A stretch of 64,000 nucleotides of DNA from Deltaproteobacteria bacterium (lineage in GTDB: Bacteria; Desulfobacterota; Binatia; UBA9968; JAJDTQ01): assembly GCA_026712905.1 (NCBI GenBank), contig JAPOPM010000175.1, forward strand, positions 4,419 to 68,418. The letters run 5' to 3'. The number at the start of each line of letters is the position of its first letter. Positions within the stretch are counted from its first letter, which is position 1. The notes beneath the pieces are model-generated. The model was not told the origin of the DNA and did no database searches. It saw nothing but the letters and a program-made list of their open reading frames with translations. This document shows positions 2,375 to 62,712 of the stretch, in pieces. A program made the position numbers and the translations under genes.

Positions 2375-3367
2375 TCAGCCTTTCCTCCGCACGACCTCAC
2401 GTGCGGCGTCGACGATAGCGGCGCTGTCCAGTCCGAATTTCTTGAAAAGATACTGCGTGGATCCCCCTTCGGCGAAGCGATCGGCGACCCCGACCCGCCG
2501 GAACGGCACTCCGATTCCCGCGTCACACAGCACTTCGGCCACGGCGGAACCGAGACCGCCCAGGATCGTGTGATTCTCGGCGGTGACGATGGCGCCGGTG
2601 GCCTTCGCGCGATCGAGCACCAGCGCGGCGTCCAAGGGCTTGAGCGAGGCCATGTCGACGACCGAGGCGGCGATCCCCTCAGCGGCAAGCCGGTCCGCGG
2701 CGGCCACGGCCTCCGCCACCGCCAGGCCGGCGGCCATGATCGTGAGGTCGGCGCCGTCCCGGCGCAGGATGCCGCGGCCCGACACCAGCGGTTGCGCCGC
2801 AACCGGACCATCGGGCGGTGTCTCCGGCCGCTTCATCCTCAGGTAGACCGGACCCTCATGCTCGAGCGCCAGTCGCACGGCCGCGGCGAAATATTCGGGA
2901 GCCGATGGCTCGAGGACCATCATGTTCGGCACCGCCCGCATCGCGGCCACGTCCTCGGTCGCCTGGTGCGACACGCCCAACAGCGTCGCGAGGCCGGGAA
3001 GGAAGCCCACGATCTTGATGGGTAGGTTGGGGTAGGCCGCCTGCAGGATGATCTGGTCGTAGCAACGCCTGGTGGCGAACGCGCAGAAGGTGTGCACGAA
3101 GGGGATCTCGCCACAACGCGCCATGCCTCCCGCGAGACCGATCATGTTGGCCTCGGCGATGCCGACGTTGTGAAAGCGATCCGGGAAGGTATCGCGGAAG
3201 ATATCGGTTTCGGTGGGCGCGGCCAGGTCGGCGGCCAGACACACGATTCGGGGATCGTCGTGGGCCGCGGCCAGGAGCGCGTCGCCGTAAAACCGGGGAA
3301 TGGGACGCTGCGAGCGGTTGATGAAATCGGCCGCTTCCAACCGCGACAGGGGGTGGGATCCGGTCAT
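2375..3367 (-). CDS. Transketolase, C-terminal subunit (split transketolase)
   Basis: The internal Met MTGSHPLSRLEAADF... within the 548-aa ORF 2375..4021 is the real start (ATGA overlap with the upstream subunit stop). Pyrimidine-binding and C-terminal transketolase domain motifs (GIAEANMIGLAGGMA, VYLRMKR). The N-terminal 218 residues of the track ORF are out-of-frame read-through. Confidence 0.8.
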   Translation of the reverse strand: MTGSHPLSRLEAADFINRSQRPIPRFYGDALLAAAHDDPRIVCLAADLAAPTETDIFRDTFPDRFHNVGIAEANMIGLAGGMARCGEIPFVHTFCAFATRRCYDQIILQAAYPNLPIKIVGFLPGLATLLGVSHQATEDVAAMRAVPNMMVLEPSAPEYFAAAVRLALEHEGPVYLRMKRPETPPDGPVAAQPLVSGRGILRRDGADLTIMAAGLAVAEAVAAADRLAAEGIAASVVDMASLKPLDAALVLDRAKATGAIVTAENHTILGGLGSAVAEVLCDAGIGVPFRRVGVADRFAEGGSTQYLFKKFGLDSAAIVDAAREVVRRKG

Positions 3368-4203
3368 GGCGCGAGTCTTCCTTTCAGTTCCTGAACGGCG
3401 CCGGCGGCGATGTCGGGCGGGAAGCGCAACTGGTGCGCGATCATCCCTTCCAGGAAGGACACGCCCTTCCCGACGAGGGTCTCCGCGATCAGGAAGCTCG
3501 GTATGCCCTTGGTTCCCCGCGCCGCGGCGAGGGCATCCAACAGGGCCGCCAGGTCGTTGCCGTCCACCCTGCTCACCGAAAACCCGAAACTCTCCATCTT
3601 GCCGGCAATCGGCTCCAGCGTGAGGATGTTGTCCACATTTCCTTCGGACTGCATTCGATTGGAGTCGAGAATAAGGCACAGGTTGTCGAGTTTCCACGAG
3701 CCCGCGGTCATCGCCGCCTCCCAGACCTGACCTTCCTGCATCTCGCCATCGCCCAGGACCGCGTAGACGCGCGCGGACCTGCCCTGCCGCTTGAGCGCCA
3801 TGGCCGTGCCGACGGCAACGGACAGTCCCTGGCCGAGGGAACCGCAGGTCGCCTCGACGAACGGCCCCACCCGCTCCGAGGCGTTCGTCTCCAGCTCCGC
3901 GCCGTCCTGGCAGTAGGTCGCGAGACGGTCCGTCTCGAAGAATCCGCGTTCGGCCAGCGCGGCGTAGAAAATCGCGGTGTTGTGCGCCGTCGTCAGGAAG
4001 ACCCGGTCGCGGTCCGGCCACGTGGGATCGGACGGGTCCAGCCGCGCTTCGGCGAAATAGAGCGCCGTGAAGATATCCGCCGCGCCCAAGCCCTGCTGAA
4101 CATAGCCTTGCCCCAGAGGGGCGACCATCTCGACCACGTGCAGGCGAAGTGTCGCGGCAATCCGTTCCAGCACGGCGATGTCTGTAGTGCGGATGTCTGT
4201 CAT
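3364..4203 (-). CDS. Transketolase, N-terminal (ThDP-binding) subunit
   Basis: 279-aa ORF; GDGEMQEGQVWEA ThDP-binding motif; GGGAGG ribosome-binding site upstream of the ATG at 4201-4203. Confidence 0.85.
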   Translation of the reverse strand: MTDIRTTDIAVLERIAATLRLHVVEMVAPLGQGYVQQGLGAADIFTALYFAEARLDPSDPTWPDRDRVFLTTAHNTAIFYAALAERGFFETDRLATYCQDGAELETNASERVGPFVEATCGSLGQGLSVAVGTAMALKRQGRSARVYAVLGDGEMQEGQVWEAAMTAGSWKLDNLCLILDSNRMQSEGNVDNILTLEPIAGKMESFGFSVSRVDGNDLAALLDALAAARGTKGIPSFLIAETLVGKGVSFLEGMIAHQLRFPPDIAAGAVQELKGRLAP

Positions 4204-6442: not shown

Positions 6443-8605
6443 TCAGAGAGAAGACGTGTAGTCCCCCGCGGCACACCGCACCAGCGTGTCCACCGCCAGC
6501 ACGCCCTGTCCCTCGGGCAGGACCATGAGGGGGTTGAATTCGATCTCGTCCACTTCACCGCGATAGTCCAGCGCCAGCCGAGACAGCGCCACGATGGCCT
6601 CCGCCAGGGCGGCGACGTCGGCCTTGGACCGGCCGCGGGCTCCGGCGAGCAGCGGGTAGGTGCGGATCTCCCGGATCATGTCTTGAGCCTCCGGCAACCC
6701 CAGAGGCGGAAGCCGGAACGCCACGTCTTTCAGCACCTCGGTGTAGATGCCGCCCAGCCCGAACACGAGGCAGATTCCCAGATCCGGCGTGCGCGACGTG
6801 CCGATGATGACCTCGGCGACACCCTGCACCATCTTCTGCACCAGCACGCCGTCGATGCGAGCGCCGGGCGCGTTCCTTCCCACGTCCTCCAGCAGCCGGT
6901 CGTACGCCTGCGCCACCTCCGCGGCGCTCGCCAGGTTGAGCCGCACGCCTCCGGCCTCGGTCTTGTGGGGCAAGTCCGTGGACTCCACCTTCAGCACCAC
7001 CGGAAACCCCATTTCGCCGGCGGCTTCCGCCGCCTCCTCACGCGAGCCGGCCAGGCGCTCGGGAACCATGGGGATGCCGTAGGCCCGAAGCAGCCGCCGT
7101 ACGGTGGCGTGGGAGGCCTCGCCCCCGGCGAGGAGCGGACGCAGCGCCTCGGTCTCCGCCGGCTCCGCCACGGACGCCTCGGCCGCGGCGCCTGAGCGAC
7201 CCCGCGACAGCGCGAGGACGTCGCGCACCGCGCGCAGCGATTTCTCGTACTCCAGCAGCAAGGGAACCTGCAGCTCGTCGAAGAACTCGAACCAGGAGCG
7301 GTCGAGTTGCTCGCTGGCCCGGGAAAGGAACAGGAACGGTTTGCCGCCGCGCCGGAGCGCGGCCGTCGACTCCCGGTACAACTGCGTGAGCCGGTCGCTG
7401 GGACTCTTGGGCAGGTTCAGGCGGCAACAGATCACCGCGAAGTTGTCGTCGCCCATGAACGTTTCCAGGCATTCGAGATAACCGGACCGGTTCGCCCAGT
7501 GCAGTTCCTCGATGTCCAGGGGGTTGCCGTTGAAGCCCTCCTTGTCGAAATAGTTGCGCAGCGCCTCGTAGGTGGCGCCGGAGGGTTCGGGCAGGTCCAC
7601 GCCGTTGCGCTCGCAGATATCGGCGAGGAAGCTGCAATCGCCCCCCGAGATGGTGACGATGCCGACGCCGCCGGAGCCGGGCAGACGGTAGGGGTCCGGG
7701 GTCGCCACGGCCAGGGCGGTGACTTCCAGCATCTGGTCGAGGTTGTCCACCGGGATGACGCCCTTCTGCCGAAAGAGCCCGTCCCACACCGCGCCCGAGG
7801 TGGCCATGTTGCCCGAGTGCGACGCGACCGCGCGACCGCCCTTCTGCGAACGCCCGAGTCTCAGCGCGACCACCACTTTCTCCCGTTCCCGCGCAAGGTC
7901 CAGCAGGCCCGCCATCTCCTCGGGACGGCTCATGGACTCGATGACCACGACGATGACGCGGGTGCCGTCGTCATCCACCGCGGCCCGCAGGTAGTCGGTG
8001 AAGCCCGCGCCCACCTGGTTGCCCGGCGCGATGGCGTAGCGGAATCCCAAGCAACGGTCGGCGGCGGTGTTGAGGAAGAGGTTGAGCAGGCCGGCGCTGC
8101 TGAACACCGCGCTCACGGGCCCGGTGGTGAGGCGTTCGGGGAGCGGCGACGACCACAGCGCGGCGCCGCATTCGAGGGACAGATAGCCCAGGGTATTGGG
8201 GCCGGCCAGCGCGATGCCGCTCTCGCGCACGATGCGGGACAGCTCCGCCTGGTACTTCCGGCCCGTGTCATCGAACTCGCCGAAGCCCGTGGCCACGGTA
8301 AGCGCGGCGCGCACGCCCTTGGCGGCGCATTCCTCCATGACCTGCACGGTGCCGTCGCGCGGGATGGCGATGACCGCCAGGTCCACGTCGCCCGGGACCG
8401 CGCCCACGGAAGGGTGGCATGGCAGATCGAAAAGCCGCTCGTAACGCGGGTTGACCGGGTAGATGTTCTCTTTCGGGAAGCCGAACCGGAACAGGTTGCG
8501 CATGAGCGCGGCCGCGTGGGGAGCGCGCTCGGACGCTCCGATGAGCACGATGTTGCGGGGCCTGAGGAGGGCCGACATGCCGTCGGAGTTGGAAGCAGTA
8601 GCCAT
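6443..8605 (-). CDS. Acyl-CoA synthetase (ADP/NDP-forming), fused alpha/beta domains (acetate--CoA ligase [ADP-forming] family)
   Basis: 720 aa; N-terminal CoA-binding/succinyl-CoA-synthetase-like domain (VLIGASERAPH...) plus C-terminal ATP-grasp domain (GFPVVLKVES...). Confidence 0.75.
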   Translation of the reverse strand: MATASNSDGMSALLRPRNIVLIGASERAPHAAALMRNLFRFGFPKENIYPVNPRYERLFDLPCHPSVGAVPGDVDLAVIAIPRDGTVQVMEECAAKGVRAALTVATGFGEFDDTGRKYQAELSRIVRESGIALAGPNTLGYLSLECGAALWSSPLPERLTTGPVSAVFSSAGLLNLFLNTAADRCLGFRYAIAPGNQVGAGFTDYLRAAVDDDGTRVIVVVIESMSRPEEMAGLLDLAREREKVVVALRLGRSQKGGRAVASHSGNMATSGAVWDGLFRQKGVIPVDNLDQMLEVTALAVATPDPYRLPGSGGVGIVTISGGDCSFLADICERNGVDLPEPSGATYEALRNYFDKEGFNGNPLDIEELHWANRSGYLECLETFMGDDNFAVICCRLNLPKSPSDRLTQLYRESTAALRRGGKPFLFLSRASEQLDRSWFEFFDELQVPLLLEYEKSLRAVRDVLALSRGRSGAAAEASVAEPAETEALRPLLAGGEASHATVRRLLRAYGIPMVPERLAGSREEAAEAAGEMGFPVVLKVESTDLPHKTEAGGVRLNLASAAEVAQAYDRLLEDVGRNAPGARIDGVLVQKMVQGVAEVIIGTSRTPDLGICLVFGLGGIYTEVLKDVAFRLPPLGLPEAQDMIREIRTYPLLAGARGRSKADVAALAEAIVALSRLALDYRGEVDEIEFNPLMVLPEGQGVLAVDTLVRCAAGDYTSSL

Positions 8606-9137: not shown

Positions 9138-9334
9138 GACCTTCGCTCCGTCAACCTGTCCGCGGTGCTCTAGTGTTGCGTTTGGCCCGACACCGCTCCA
9201 GGTTCAAGCGAACCGTAGACGCTCCCAAGCCCGAAGGCAAGCTCCGTGAGCCGGACACGGCATAGCCGGGAAAAACGGCGCCGCCGCCATCACACGGTGG
9301 ATGAAATACACGGCCTGAAAGAGGGCGCGTCGAG

Positions 9335-59354: not shown

Positions 59355-59729
59355 ATGGCGAAGGATGCACGCGAGGCTTTCGAAAGTGTCTCGCTAGGGG
59401 CCGGGAACAAGGCCTACGAGATCATCGCCGATCTCGACCCGGAATACGCGCGGCACCTGACGGGGCTGTTCGTGGACGGGACCTTCGGGCGTGAGGGCGC
59501 CCTCGACCGGAAGACCAAGGAGCTGATCATGGTCGGCATCACCTGCGCGCTGAACCGGCCCCGGGGGGTGCGCCTCCACAGCGAACGGGCGCTCAAGCTC
59601 GGCGCGACGCCGCGGCAGGTACTGGAGGCGGTGGAGGTGGCCGCGATACCCGGGGGCATGCCGGGACTGTGGCTTGGAGCCGAGACGCTGGACGCGATCC
59701 TGCGCGAACAGGGAATCGAGTTCAAATGA
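59355..59729 (+). CDS. Carboxymuconolactone decarboxylase-family protein (AhpD-like)
   Basis: 124 aa; CMD-domain motif region (ELIMVGITCALNRPRGVRLHSERALKLGAT). Confidence 0.75.
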   Translation: MAKDAREAFESVSLGAGNKAYEIIADLDPEYARHLTGLFVDGTFGREGALDRKTKELIMVGITCALNRPRGVRLHSERALKLGATPRQVLEAVEVAAIPGGMPGLWLGAETLDAILREQGIEFK

Positions 59730-60928
59730 GCCTGGCCCACGGGCCGCTCCACGGGGTCCGGGTGCTGGACCTGACGCGGGTCCTGGCGGGTCCCTACTGC
59801 ACCATGTTCCTGGGCGACCTGGGAGCGGAGGTCGTCAAGGTCGAACAGCCGGGCGTGGGTGACGACACGCGCAGTTGGGGGCCGCCCTTCCAGGGAGGCG
59901 AGAGCGCCTATTTCCTGTGCGTCAACCGCAACAAGCGCAGCGTGACCCTGGACCTCCGGACGCCGGACGGCATCGCGTTGCTGCGCCGCCTGGCGCTGCG
60001 GGCCGATGTGCTGATGGAGAACTTCCGGCCGGGCACCCTCGCCGGCTGGGGCCTGCCCGAAACGGAGATCCGGCGGGAGAACCCGCGGCTGATCTACGCC
60101 TCGCTTTCGGCCTTCGGCGCCAGCGGCCCGCTGAAGGACCTGCCCGGCTACGACCTCGCCATGCAGGCCTGGGGCGGCCTCATGAGCATCACCGGCCCGG
60201 CCGGCGGCGAGCCCTCCAAGGTGGGCGTCGCCATCATCGACGTCGTCGCCGGCCTGATGCTGGGGCAATCCATCGCCGCGGCCCTCTACGCACGCGAAAA
60301 GACCGGTGAAGGACAAAGGATCGAGACCTCCCTCATGGAGGCGGAGGTGGCGAGCCTCATCAACGCCGGCAGCAACTACCTCGTCACCGGCGAGGTGCCC
60401 GGACGCTGGGGCAACGCCCACCCCAACATCGTGCCCTACCAGAGTTTCCCGACGGCCGACGGCCACTTGGTGGTGGCCATGGCCAACGACGCCATCTGGA
60501 CGCGGTTTTGCAAGGCGGCGGGCCAGCCGGAGCTGGCGGAAGACCCGCGTTTCGACACCAATGCGCACCGCGTGGAGCACCGAGACGTCCTCATCGAGCT
60601 CTTGAACGAGATGTTCCGCTCGCGTCCGCGCGGGGAATGGATCGAGATCCTGAACGACGCGGGCGTGCCGTGCTCGCCGGTCCAGAACATCCAGGAAGTG
60701 TTCGAATCCCCACAGGTCCTGGCCACGGGGATGCTGCGGGAGATCGACCACCCGACCGCCGGCAAGGTGCGTATGGCCGGGCCGCCGGTGAAGTTCTCGG
60801 GCACGCCCGCGTCCATCCGGCTGGCGCCACCGCTCCTGGGGGAACACAACGAGCAGGTGCTCAAGGAATGGCTGGATCTGGAGGAGGCGGAGGTCGCGGA
60901 GGTTCGGAGACGGGGGACCCTCGGTTAG
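59726..60928 (+). CDS. CoA-transferase family III (CaiB/BaiF family)
   Basis: GPLHGVRVLDLTRVLAGPYCTMFLGDLGAEVVKVE N-terminal signature. ATGA overlap with the CMD gene stop. Confidence 0.85.
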   Translation: MSLAHGPLHGVRVLDLTRVLAGPYCTMFLGDLGAEVVKVEQPGVGDDTRSWGPPFQGGESAYFLCVNRNKRSVTLDLRTPDGIALLRRLALRADVLMENFRPGTLAGWGLPETEIRRENPRLIYASLSAFGASGPLKDLPGYDLAMQAWGGLMSITGPAGGEPSKVGVAIIDVVAGLMLGQSIAAALYAREKTGEGQRIETSLMEAEVASLINAGSNYLVTGEVPGRWGNAHPNIVPYQSFPTADGHLVVAMANDAIWTRFCKAAGQPELAEDPRFDTNAHRVEHRDVLIELLNEMFRSRPRGEWIEILNDAGVPCSPVQNIQEVFESPQVLATGMLREIDHPTAGKVRMAGPPVKFSGTPASIRLAPPLLGEHNEQVLKEWLDLEEAEVAEVRRRGTLG

Positions 60929-60959
60929 CGGCACGGGCCGCTGCGCAAGGACGGTGCAC

Positions 60960-61124
60960 CTAGTGTCCTGCGTCACAAATAGCTTGATGAATCCGCGGGT
61001 CCTTTTCGCCGTCGGCTGCGTTACTCTTCCTCGCGTGGTGCCCGCCACTGCTCGTCATCGCGCCTTGCCGACGACAAAAATGCCCTCGCGGATTCATCAA
61101 GCTATTTGTGACGCAGGACACTAG
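60960..61124. mobile_element. MITE-like element: perfect 38-bp terminal inverted repeats (CTAGTGTCCTGCGTCACAAATAGCTTGATGAATCCGCG) around an 89-bp core, bounded by CTAG
   Basis: Seen directly: 60960-60997 is the exact reverse complement of 61087-61124. Arm GC (~47%) is well below genome GC. No ORF inside. Lies in the intergenic gap between the CoA-transferase and MaoC genes. Confidence 0.45.
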
Positions 61125-61152
61125 CGGGAAGCGGACAAGCGAGGACAACGGC

Positions 61153-61608
61153 ATGCGACAGGGAATGCACTTTGAAGAGTACCGCCCGGGCGACGTTTTC
61201 CGAACCGCCCGGCGCACCGTGACGGAGACCGACGTGGTCCAGTTCGTGAACCTGGTCGGGCTCATGGAACCGCTGTTCATTGATGCCGAGTACATGCGCG
61301 ACGAGACCGAGTACGGCGGGCGCATCGCCCCCGGCAGCCTCACGTTCGCGCTGGCCGAGGGGCTGACCACCCAGACCGGCATGCTGCACGGGACGGGCCT
61401 GGCCTTCGTCGGCCTCGAAGGCATGCGGCTGTTCAGGCCGGTGAAGGTGGGCGACACGATCGCCGTCGAGATCGAGGTGCTCGACGGCCGCGAGACCAAG
61501 TCGCGCAAAGCCGGTATCGTTCGTTGCCGGCACGTAATCACCAACCAGCACGGCGAGACGGTGATGGACTATACGGTGAAACGCTTGATCCGCGGTCAGG
61601 ACGCCTGA
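61153..61608 (+). CDS. MaoC-family dehydratase (hot-dog fold, R-specific enoyl-CoA hydratase-like)
   Basis: Internal ATG (MRQGMHFEEYRPGDVF...); MaoC_dehydratas hot-dog motif region. Confidence 0.75.
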   Translation: MRQGMHFEEYRPGDVFRTARRTVTETDVVQFVNLVGLMEPLFIDAEYMRDETEYGGRIAPGSLTFALAEGLTTQTGMLHGTGLAFVGLEGMRLFRPVKVGDTIAVEIEVLDGRETKSRKAGIVRCRHVITNQHGETVMDYTVKRLIRGQDA

Positions 61609-61659
61609 CACCACACCAGGCGCGGCGGGACGCGCACTGGATCTTCGCGCTACGGCCGC

Positions 61660-62712
61660 TTATGGCCCCCGCGTGTCGCCCGCGGGCTCATCGGGGAAGA
61701 GCGCCTTGCGCAGTTGCACGAGAAACTTGGGGTCCAGCTCGAACAGCCCATTGACGGTCTTCTCGATGGCCGCGCCGTCCAGCGGGCGCACCTCCAAACC
61801 CAGCCTGTTGGCCCCCGCGACAAACGCCGGATCGGCCATGGTGTCCGCAAACGCCTTGCGCAGTTTGGCCACCTGCTCTTTCGGCGTCCCGGGAGGGAGC
61901 GTATAGGCCCGCGCCAGCCTCGCCGGGTCGTGAACACCGTACATGACCAGCATGCGGGCGTTCTCGGACTTGGCCAGGTCCACCGCGTTGGGGACGGACG
62001 GCAGATCCGGGTGCGGCCCGGACATGGCCTGAAGCACGACCTGCGCTTCGCCCACGGCAAGCATCCTGGCCCACGTTTTCTTGACCGACTGCCAGTGCCA
62101 GCAGCCGCCGGCCACTTCCTGCCTGCCGGCGGCCAGTCGGAGATTCTCAAGGCCCTTGTAACCGGGGATGAGCTTGATCGGCAGGCCCAGGGCGGTCGCG
62201 ACGACGCGGGACATGTTTGTCGCGGCCTCGTTACGCCCGATGCCGCCCAGCTTGACGGGCCGCTTGCCGCCGGCCCAACCGGCCACGTCCGCGATGCCGC
62301 TCGCCTTGGTGAGGACGCAGACCGGATGCAGGGGCGCCACCGCGCCGACCCACTCGAAGCGCCGCGTGTCCACCTTCACATCTGTTCGACCGAATATCTG
62401 CTTGTGGATGAGGTCGCCCGCCCAGTGGCCCACGGTGCGGCCGTCGGGCTTGGCTTCGCGGTAGAGGTACTCCGCCGCCACGCTGCCGCCGCCTCCGGCC
62501 AGGTTTCGCACCGCCACCTTGGGGCGTTCCGGCAGATGCCGTCCGATGTGGCGTGCCAGAAGGCGGGTGTAGCTGTCGAAGACGCCGCCGGCGCCGGCGC
62601 CCACCACGAAGGTCAGTGGGCGCTCATCGGCTCCGGCCGCTCGGATGGGAAACGGCACAAGCACCAGCAACAGCGCGGCTGCGAGAATGGCTCTGGATAG
62701 AATCGCCACCAC
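61660..62712 (-). CDS. Periplasmic substrate-binding protein, Bug/TctC-like family
   Basis: 350 aa; signal peptide; C-terminal PPGTPKEQVAKLRKAFADTMADPAFVAGANRLGLEVRPLDG matches the Bug-family C-terminal pattern. Confidence 0.55.
   Translation of the reverse strand: MVAILSRAILAAALLLVLVPFPIRAAGADERPLTFVVGAGAGGVFDSYTRLLARHIGRHLPERPKVAVRNLAGGGGSVAAEYLYREAKPDGRTVGHWAGDLIHKQIFGRTDVKVDTRRFEWVGAVAPLHPVCVLTKASGIADVAGWAGGKRPVKLGGIGRNEAATNMSRVVATALGLPIKLIPGYKGLENLRLAAGRQEVAGGCWHWQSVKKTWARMLAVGEAQVVLQAMSGPHPDLPSVPNAVDLAKSENARMLVMYGVHDPARLARAYTLPPGTPKEQVAKLRKAFADTMADPAFVAGANRLGLEVRPLDGAAIEKTVNGLFELDPKFLVQLRKALFPDEPAGDTRGP

Follow-up and report, generated by a model that had tools for sequence, protein, structure and literature searches.

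Three genes in the 64-kb window (the whole stretch of DNA analysed here) form a cluster that encodes a carboxymuconolactone decarboxylase (CMD) family protein, a family III CoA-transferase and a MaoC-like hydratase, and the spacer between the last two harbors a hairpin-forming element of 165 bp (Table 1). This spacer measures 224 nt from the stop of the CoA-transferase gene (60928) to the ATG of the MaoC gene (61153), both on the plus strand, and is mostly filled by the element. The ribosome-binding region of the MaoC gene (GAGGA) is intact after the insertion. An exact look-up of the 419-aa CoA-transferase ORF found it not to be on record, because the called gene begins later. In the identical locus L124 (L numbers denote loci fetched for comparison), the gene call is 400 aa long and overlaps the CMD gene by 4 nt.

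Table 1. Genes and element parts at the CoA-transferase/MaoC locus (window positions)
Feature	Position	Strand	Basis
CMD family gene, first of the interrupted cluster	59355..59729	+	ORF; 124-aa gene with PF02627 in identical locus L124
Family III CoA-transferase gene, stop 31 nt upstream of element	59726..60928	+	PF02515, E = 6.7e-139
Whole feature, CTAG + 157 bp + CTAG, 165 bp	60960..61124	.	Sequence; modal family length
Left copy of putative TA target-site duplication (in C-TA-G)	60961..60962	.	Sequence
Element proper under the IS630 model, 159 bp, GTGTCC...GGACAC	60963..61121	-	Inferred from IS630 parentage and target rule (PMC2577343)
Upstream terminal inverted repeat arm	60963..60997	+	Exact complement of 61087-61121
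89-nt core, outer parts prolong the hairpin imperfectly	60998..61086	-	Repeat, fold and alignment analyses
Invariant "head" of core, alignment columns 59-108, ~97% identical across subfamilies	61017..61066	-	Family alignment
Downstream terminal inverted repeat arm	61087..61121	-	Exact complement of upstream arm
Right copy of putative TA target-site duplication	61122..61123	.	Same basis as left copy
MaoC-like hydratase gene, start 28 nt downstream of element	61153..61608	+	PF01575/PF13452

The ends of the element form a perfect inverted repeat of 38 nt, in that positions 60960-60997 (CTAGTGTCCTGCGTCACAAATAGCTTGATGAATCCGCG) are the reverse complement of 61087-61124, and CTAG is the outer tetranucleotide on both sides. 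Recomputation thus reproduced the repeat and the CTAG ends that the original prediction had placed in this spacer. Its judgement that such a repeat is unlikely to arise by chance also held, since 100 dinucleotide shuffles of the window yielded no inverted-repeat match at all. The repeat extends imperfectly to 47 nt at 91% complementarity, and an inner stem (GTCGTCGGC/GCCGACGGC) pairs inside the core, such that only the central ~50 nt are asymmetric. The description of the 89-bp core as not palindromic is therefore correct for this center, but not for the outer core, which pairs. As RNA, the element region folds into a single rod of -106.9 kcal/mol (z = -11.5), and none of 200 shuffles was as stable. 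The arms have a GC content of 50% and the core of 63%, in a window of 66.3%; the values given originally, ~47% for the arms and ~68% for the genome, were somewhat off.

With its size of 165 bp, its 38-nt perfect inverted repeat and no transposase gene, the element has the make-up of a bacterial MITE. No transposase gene was found anywhere in the 64-kb window, and the window copy is hence non-autonomous. The window contains no second full copy, and CTAG is 12-fold under-represented there (16 observed versus ~200 expected). A scan of positions 60000-62000 on both strands with the Rfam 15 covariance models (E <= 10) returned no relevant match, and apart from two meaningless microRNA matches elsewhere, Rfam gave nothing at this threshold. 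Likewise, no match was obtained among PLSDB plasmids (blastn with the 185-bp region) or among IMG/VR viral contigs with the core 20-mer GCGCGATGACGAGCAGTGGC, which sits in the invariant head and was used for finding the family.

Empty orthologous sites and copies elsewhere

In the window organism, a relative of Binatia, the CMD / CoA-transferase / MaoC cluster is syntenic with that of the Binatia chromosome OZ241976 (80% MaoC identity). In three other relatives (L132, L134 and L135; MaoC identity 85-87%), the CoA-transferase/MaoC spacer is 30-33 nt long and lacks the element. The closest relative, L136, with a MaoC identity of 94%, has an element-free spacer of 59 nt, compared with 63 nt in the window after subtraction of the element. 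The right flank GGGAAGCGGACA.ACGAGGACAACG.CATG is conserved in L136, which carries CGAG where the window has CTAG. Filled and empty orthologous sites, as expected for a MITE, are thus both present, though the spacers have diverged and the comparison is not base-exact. From the 30-33-nt spacing in the relatives and the 4-nt overlap with the CMD gene, the three genes are probably co-transcribed. Furthermore, the spacer is a recurrent insertion site, since in OZ241976 (L133, ~750-2450) it holds an unrelated IS of ~1.7 kb with a 496-aa DDE_Tnp_1 transposase; the termini of this IS begin GGAGTCCGTAC, and its flanks are TAG/CTAG.

These relatives bear on the question whether the structure could be a native hairpin that arose at this very locus as an attenuator, terminator or processing site and controls read-through from the CoA-transferase into the MaoC gene. 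The very stable fold would agree with this, as would the location between co-oriented, probably co-transcribed genes that lie only 30-33 nt apart in relatives. However, the hairpin is missing from the orthologous spacer in four relatives, including the one with 94% MaoC identity, and near-identical copies sit at unrelated loci in other genomes. Moreover, scans for sigma-70 promoters and intrinsic terminators between 60700 and 61400 found nothing within the element, no T-run follows the stem, and no Rfam family matches; the combination of a GC-rich stem with a T-run, conserved in orthologous loci, that marks an intrinsic terminator or attenuator is thus not seen here. The conserved regulatory hairpin that the original prediction had offered as its second option is contradicted by the many copies elsewhere and by its absence from the orthologous loci. 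As the origin of the element, a native hairpin is already refuted, and we give it next to no credence, while a secondary RNA-level effect on MaoC may exist.

A search for additional copies, as proposed in the original prediction, did reveal near-identical ones in other genomes at unrelated sites. Among GTDB species representatives, an arm 20-mer found three loci. The first (L001), on an uncultured Binatia chromosome, carries a full copy at an unrelated site with 2/165 mismatches to the window copy and with the core in the opposite orientation. The second (L002), in a Thermodesulfobacteriota MAG, is a solo arm that adjoins a second 165-bp element with different arms but the same core, and the third (L003), from another Binatia MAG, likewise has only a solo arm. 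The core 20-mer is found at more than 120 loci among the matches listed, in sponge-microbiome metagenomes as well as Binatia and Thermodesulfobacteriota MAGs; about nine of the sampled matches are chance matches in coding DNA. From the matches listed, 48 distinct complete elements with different flanks were extracted, 37 of which are exactly 165 bp long, and CTAG is present at 44 of the 48 left ends and 47 of the 48 right ends.

The arm subtype of the window copy occurs at at least five different sites. These copies are 97.6-100% identical to the window copy at aligned positions (0-4 mismatches in 165 nt), and the one in L065 carries an extra insertion of 24 nt. The genome that harbors the L001 copy is only 80-89% nucleotide-identical to the window in orthologous genes. 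Finding near-identical copies despite such diverged host genes points to recent activity or horizontal spread among sponge-associated bacteria, and makes these copies a marker for recent exchange of mobile DNA in the sponge microbiome. At the window's own locus, the element is present in all eight independent assemblies with 0 mismatches. Six of these assemblies end inside the element, and many matches of the core 20-mer sit at contig ends; the family thus fragments metagenome assemblies. The MKWU01 source series stems from the microbiome of the sponge Aplysina aerophoba (PMC5649159). Our search for literature on such a family in sponge symbionts or Binatia returned nothing, and this is apparently a large, previously undescribed MITE family of Binatia and other bacteria of the marine-sponge microbiome.

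Besides complete copies, several kinds of remnants were seen. Solo termini of 12-27 nt exist in many loci, for instance CTAGTGTCCTGCGTCACAAATAGCTTG, with the same cut base in L002/L068/L035 and in L003. In the window itself, positions 9170-9185 (CTAGTGTTGCGTTTGG) are a 16-nt exact match to the terminus of the L099/L121 arm subtype of the same MITE family, with neither a core nor a second arm nearby, and this is probably a solo-terminus remnant. Core-less mini-hairpins that consist of two arms only are further decay products (L084 8229-8275; L061, reverse-complement ~8138-8190). The copy in L025 (a 2978-nt locus with the core 20-mer at 2197-2216, minus) has lost the stretch between two CACCAC microhomologies, which lie in the core and in the right terminus, respectively. 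Finally, a second palindromic repeat family (…GCGCCCTTCGACTTCGCTTCGC…CCCTTCGACAAGCTCAGG…GCGAAGCGAAGTCGAAGGGCGC) is present in L002 (2300-2440), L035, L068, L020, L006, L117 and L138, often beside or nested in MITE copies of the same genomes.

IS630-family partners and the CTAG target

Two complete IS630-family elements of ~1.16-1.19 kb have termini that match MITE arms. The first (L095, 94-1251) came from a search of the fetched loci (~1 Mb) for matching TAGTGT...ACACTA termini 0.25-6 kb apart; it is 1,158 bp long, flanked by CTAG, and contains one ORF of 360 aa. The encoded protein is an IS630-family transposase (NCBIfam NF033545, 260 bits, cutoff 100) in which Pfam recognises DDE_3 and HTH domains, and the termini of the element (TAGTGTGGTGTCTGGTTAATTCG) equal one MITE arm subtype. 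The second (L134, 4213-5402) lies 1.3 kb from the orthologous locus and encodes a transposase with 46% identity to that of L095. Its termini (CTAGTGTCCTGTCTCACAAATAGG) are a perfect repeat of ~30 nt, and both agree with the window arms in 22 of 24 positions and with the MITE subtype of L061/L059 in all 24. Termini shared with an autonomous IS that encodes a DDE_3 transposase are what is expected of an IS630-derived MITE. The likeness to the IS comprises the outer ~24-30 nt only, and the 89-nt MITE core is unrelated to the IS interior. A transposase with termini identical to those of the window subtype (TGCGTCAC instead of TGTCTCAC) was not found in the fetched loci.

The original prediction of a non-autonomous transposable element is thus borne out by near-identical copies at unrelated sites, empty orthologous spacers and autonomous partners with matching termini, but its attribution to the IS5 group is not, because these partners encode IS630-family transposases. 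Taken together, the sequences make it very probable that the window element is an IS630-mobilised MITE without a transposase of its own. A derivation from, and mobilisation by, an IS5-family element would likewise account for the CTAG on both sides, then as a 4-bp target-site duplication, since this and a TA duplication within CTAG give identical sequence. There is also a precedent in MITEPsy1, a documented IS5-related MITE that duplicates CTAG (PMC3189936). However, the sole autonomous elements found with these termini belong to the IS630 family, no IS5-type transposase bounded by TAGTGT termini was present in the ~1 Mb of fetched loci, and the DDE_Tnp_1 IS in the same spacer of L133 has unrelated termini. 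We consider an IS5 origin very improbable.

The multi-copy, intergenic occurrence and the long hairpin are also features of REP/REPIN-type and other hairpin repeats that are moved by an HUH (RAYT/IS200-like) enzyme. REP/REPIN repeats proper are short palindromes in inverted pairs, accompanied by a RAYT gene and lacking a target duplication. For the present family, though, the terminal inverted repeats and the putative target duplication are typical of DDE transposons, the arms match IS630 termini, and the partners are DDE transposases. Furthermore, no RAYT-like gene was noticed among the genes seen beside the copies. A mere chance palindrome is excluded by the shuffles of repeat and fold, and we see practically no prospect for either of these explanations.

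IS630 inserts at CTAG with a 2-bp duplication of TA (PMC2577343, Table 1, citing Tenzen & Ohtsubo 1991). With IS630 as the parent, the CTAG ends can be read as the classic IS630 target with TA duplicated, and the structure is best read as C-TA, followed by a 159-bp element (60963-61121) and TA-G. Since CTAG is palindromic, 2-bp and 4-bp duplications look alike, and the preference for TA comes from the family identity. The same holds for the length of the duplication, as the divergence of the empty sites precludes a base-exact comparison of before and after. Several other observations fit the IS630 model. CTAG is scarce in the window, and tandem copies of the element have a single CTAG in common. 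Also, the terminal TAG of the element is the stop codon of the neighboring gene at 22 of 46 distinct insertion sites (L001-L123; e.g., L002 2105-2117), suggesting that C-TAG stop codons are often the exact point of insertion and that the stop is regenerated. The window copy does not overlap a stop codon, but lies 31 nt past that of the CoA-transferase gene.

We thus propose that IS630-family (Tc1/mariner-like DDE) transposases would recognise the ~24-30-nt termini of the MITE and mobilise it in trans, the outer ~24 nt of each arm presumably being the transposase-binding terminus. In the window, a MITE would have inserted at the TA of a CTAG within the ~63-nt spacer of the probable CMD / CoA-transferase / MaoC operon, duplicated the TA, and so regenerated CTAG on both sides. 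The arms have probably diversified along with different IS630 transposase lineages, the central core remaining almost constant. By this mechanism, the window copy may still be able to move. An abundant MITE family of Binatia and other symbionts of marine sponges is thus defined together with its IS630 partners.

A peculiarity of the L095 element is that its transposase ORF (93-1175, minus) passes through the terminus and ends with the TAG of the adjacent CTAG (...RINQTPH-stop). The MITE copies of L010, L027 and L032, which have the L095 arm subtype, encode the same ...RINQTPH-stop tail in frame 0.

A constant core with different arms

In an alignment of 35 distinct 165-bp copies, the mean pairwise identity is 84% in the outer 12 nt and only 60% at arm positions 13-38, as compared to 92% over the whole core and 97% over the inner core (positions 56-117). 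Within each copy, arm positions 13-30 are 94-100% paired. RNAalifold on 23 diverse copies returns a rod with compensatory double changes in 29 of 57 pairs, including 45-122 and 49-118 in the short stem that adjoins the arms on their inner side. No variation is seen in the head (columns 59-108, window 61017-61066), which is for this reason outside the reach of covariation. Both ends must fit one and the same transposase, and since the various arm subtypes correspond to the termini of different IS630 lineages, this accounts for much of the covariation in the arms. Pairing past the IS-homologous ~24-30 nt suggests an extra preference for a hairpin.

A core that is more conserved than the termini is the opposite of simple MITE decay, and it may be constrained or homogenised by something more than selfish transposition. 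In part, this conservation is an ascertainment effect, because most copies were gathered with the core 20-mer; a search of the fetched loci by termini only found no element with another core. One possible cause of the constancy is purifying selection, for instance on a site that would aid synapsis of ends only ~90 bp apart. The analogy here is the internal IHF site of long Correia elements (PMC2229807). Another possibility is gene conversion between copies, and such homogenisation is supported by core variants with nested hairpins that occur with several arm types.

These nested GC-rich hairpins (CCCCGGGTCAAGGCCCGGGG...; GGGGCGACCnnCGGTCGCCCC) were found only inside MITE cores, where they are combined with several different arms, which suggests recombination or gene conversion between cores. 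Nested hairpins of ~24-27 nt (CCCCGGGTCAAGGCCCGGGGTGACGT, TTGTAGGGGCGACCTGCGGTCGCCCCC), neither of them in the window, sit at fixed core positions. One follows GGAAGA (L065, L066, L072, L104, L118, L120, L017 and L021), and the other follows GATGAC (L002 5570-5600, L008, L021, L068, L086 and L138). Copies interrupted between GATGAC and TTGTA were considered as a possible full-length parent, but this was rejected, as what interrupts them is a GC-rich hairpin of ~27 nt within the core.

The original prediction saw no ORF inside the element. Strictly, mechanical ORFs do cross it, and frame 0 is free of stops over the whole 165 bp in 30 of 35 copies on one strand and 32 of 35 on the other. However, differences within the core are non-synonymous in 75 cases versus 27 synonymous ones, which gives no sign of coding, so that the element is not protein-coding. 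A peptide from the 54-codon open frame was rejected on the same count.

In at least 11 loci, a genomic island abuts the MITE core at one fixed position, in place of the right arm (L097 1-1270 (minus), L137 9577-12418, L138 9520-12427, L004, L006, L010, L038, L039, L072, L073 and L087). These copies carry CTAG, the left arm and the whole core to ...GGCGAAAAAGACC(C/A), and then continue into a shared sequence, ATATATTGTGTAyTGATCTCACC...CTCGGGTAGCGGACAAGCGCTG; at the junction, ...GGCGAAAAAGACC is joined directly to ATATATTGTG.... A tyrosine integrase gene with Arm-DNA-bind_3, SAM-like and catalytic domains begins ~290 nt further on, and two complete chromosomes that have this junction show two tandem tyrosine integrases of 393 aa and 404-407 aa after it. 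Beyond the integrases, there are more than 10 kb of variable cargo, including restriction-modification genes of Eco57I-, XhoI- and XamI-like type, a transposase of IS3 type and an AAA_16 protein of 1,698 aa. For the L137 half-copy, the predicted right arm is CCGCAGATTATGACCCGAATTAACCAGACACCACACTAG.

The half-copies at the island junction represent at least three arm subtypes, which suggests that the core serves as the attachment site, and the simplest reading would be that islands integrate site-specifically at the 3' border of this conserved core. A stretch of L008 (~3338-3385) that was considered as the far junction of the island may be just a truncated copy. Integrase-bearing "long variants" were also considered as the parent of the MITE, but were rejected as the source of the arms, since the IS630 elements have matching termini.

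The core could thus be a functional module that is carried between IS630 lineages, either as a binding or bending site for the joining of ends, or as a dispersed attachment site for islands. We offer this tentatively, as an idea that is more probably wrong than right. If it were true, the MITE would offer integrative islands a portable landing pad in the genomes of sponge symbionts. The constant core with its swappable arms and the integrase island docked there are in any case the parts worth following up.

Possible effect on MaoC and comparison with known systems

For the host locus, the odd low-GC hairpin is explained as a recent insertion into a probable operon, which predicts an effect on MaoC expression. 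A transcript of the operon would carry a very stable hairpin, with the family core antisense to transcription, as the "core-plus" orientation of the family corresponds to the minus strand of the window. Across the family, the orientation bias with respect to transcription is 20:9, which is not significant (p = 0.06), and the window copy has the minority orientation. Any influence on MaoC would be exerted by way of RNA processing or stability, by impeded elongation or by translation coupling; effects of this type at the RNA level have been proposed or shown for Correia and ERIC elements (PMC2229807).

Extending this thought, the MITE may have been exapted, with the core as a functional module (a site for a host factor or recombinase, or an RNA element) and the window copy modulating stability or translation of the CoA-transferase/MaoC transcript. 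This would be in keeping with the difference between core (~97% identical) and arms (~60%), with the compensatory changes (in 29 of 57 pairs) that keep the rod paired over its full length, with the two-integrase island always abutting the same core position, and with the weak orientation bias (20:9, p = 0.06). The RNA-level effects of Correia and ERIC and the internal IHF site of Correia are precedents (PMC2229807). Against it, the element contains neither a promoter motif nor a terminator motif and matches no Rfam family, its invariant head is without covariation, and the window copy is in the minority orientation. Moreover, gene conversion could homogenise the core without any function, and the nested-hairpin variants span several arm types. 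All in all, we regard exaptation as unlikely, though worth keeping in mind.

The element is of an ordinary kind, very probably an IS630-mobilised MITE, and what is new is its family, of which we found no earlier description in the literature and which has no sequence similarity to RUP, Correia or ERIC elements. Members of the IS630 family (IS630; Tc1/mariner superfamily) use CTAG as target with TA duplication (PMC2577343), and their L095 and L134 representatives have termini that match the MITE arms. Their transposases have a DDE_3 catalytic domain and an N-terminal HTH, whereas the window element has no transposase. With respect to the target, MITEPsy1 of Pseudomonas syringae is similar in being a small MITE that inserts at CTAG (PMC3189936). 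However, it is derived from the IS5 family with a 4-bp duplication, while the autonomous elements that match the new family belong to IS630.

In proposed RNA-level or host-factor features, Correia and ERIC are the closest known elements. The Correia/NEMIS elements of Neisseria resemble the new family in being MITEs, ~107-155 bp in size, that end in TA and have long terminal repeats; their long form contains an internal module of ~50 bp with an IHF site, and the hairpins of their transcripts are cleaved by RNase III, which alters the expression of neighboring genes (PMC2229807). They differ from the new family in sequence, no IHF consensus is conserved in the core of the latter, and a partner transposase has been identified for the new family, but not for Correia in that review (PMC2229807). 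The ERIC/IRU elements of enterobacteria are imperfect palindromes of ~127 bp that are co-transcribed and have an orientation-dependent effect on mRNA stability (PMC2229807). They have a different sequence, different hosts and much shorter perfect terminal repeats than the new family, and no IS630 partner is described for them in PMC2229807.

The closest known system in mechanism is RUP (repeat unit of pneumococcus) of Streptococcus pneumoniae, for which IS630-Spn1 is the suggested mobiliser and which is present in ~100 copies per genome (PMC2229807). Like the window MITE, RUP is small, non-coding and intergenic, has IS630-like termini, inserts at TA and forms a stem-loop (PMC2229807). However, RUP measures 107 bp with 9 contiguous terminal pairs, as compared to 165 bp and 32-38 perfect pairs in the new family, and it has stops in all six frames, whereas frame 0 of the new family is open on both strands. 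The two also differ in sequence and in host, which here is a high-GC, uncultured, sponge-associated bacterium. In further distinction from RUP, the new family combines many arm subtypes with one constant core.
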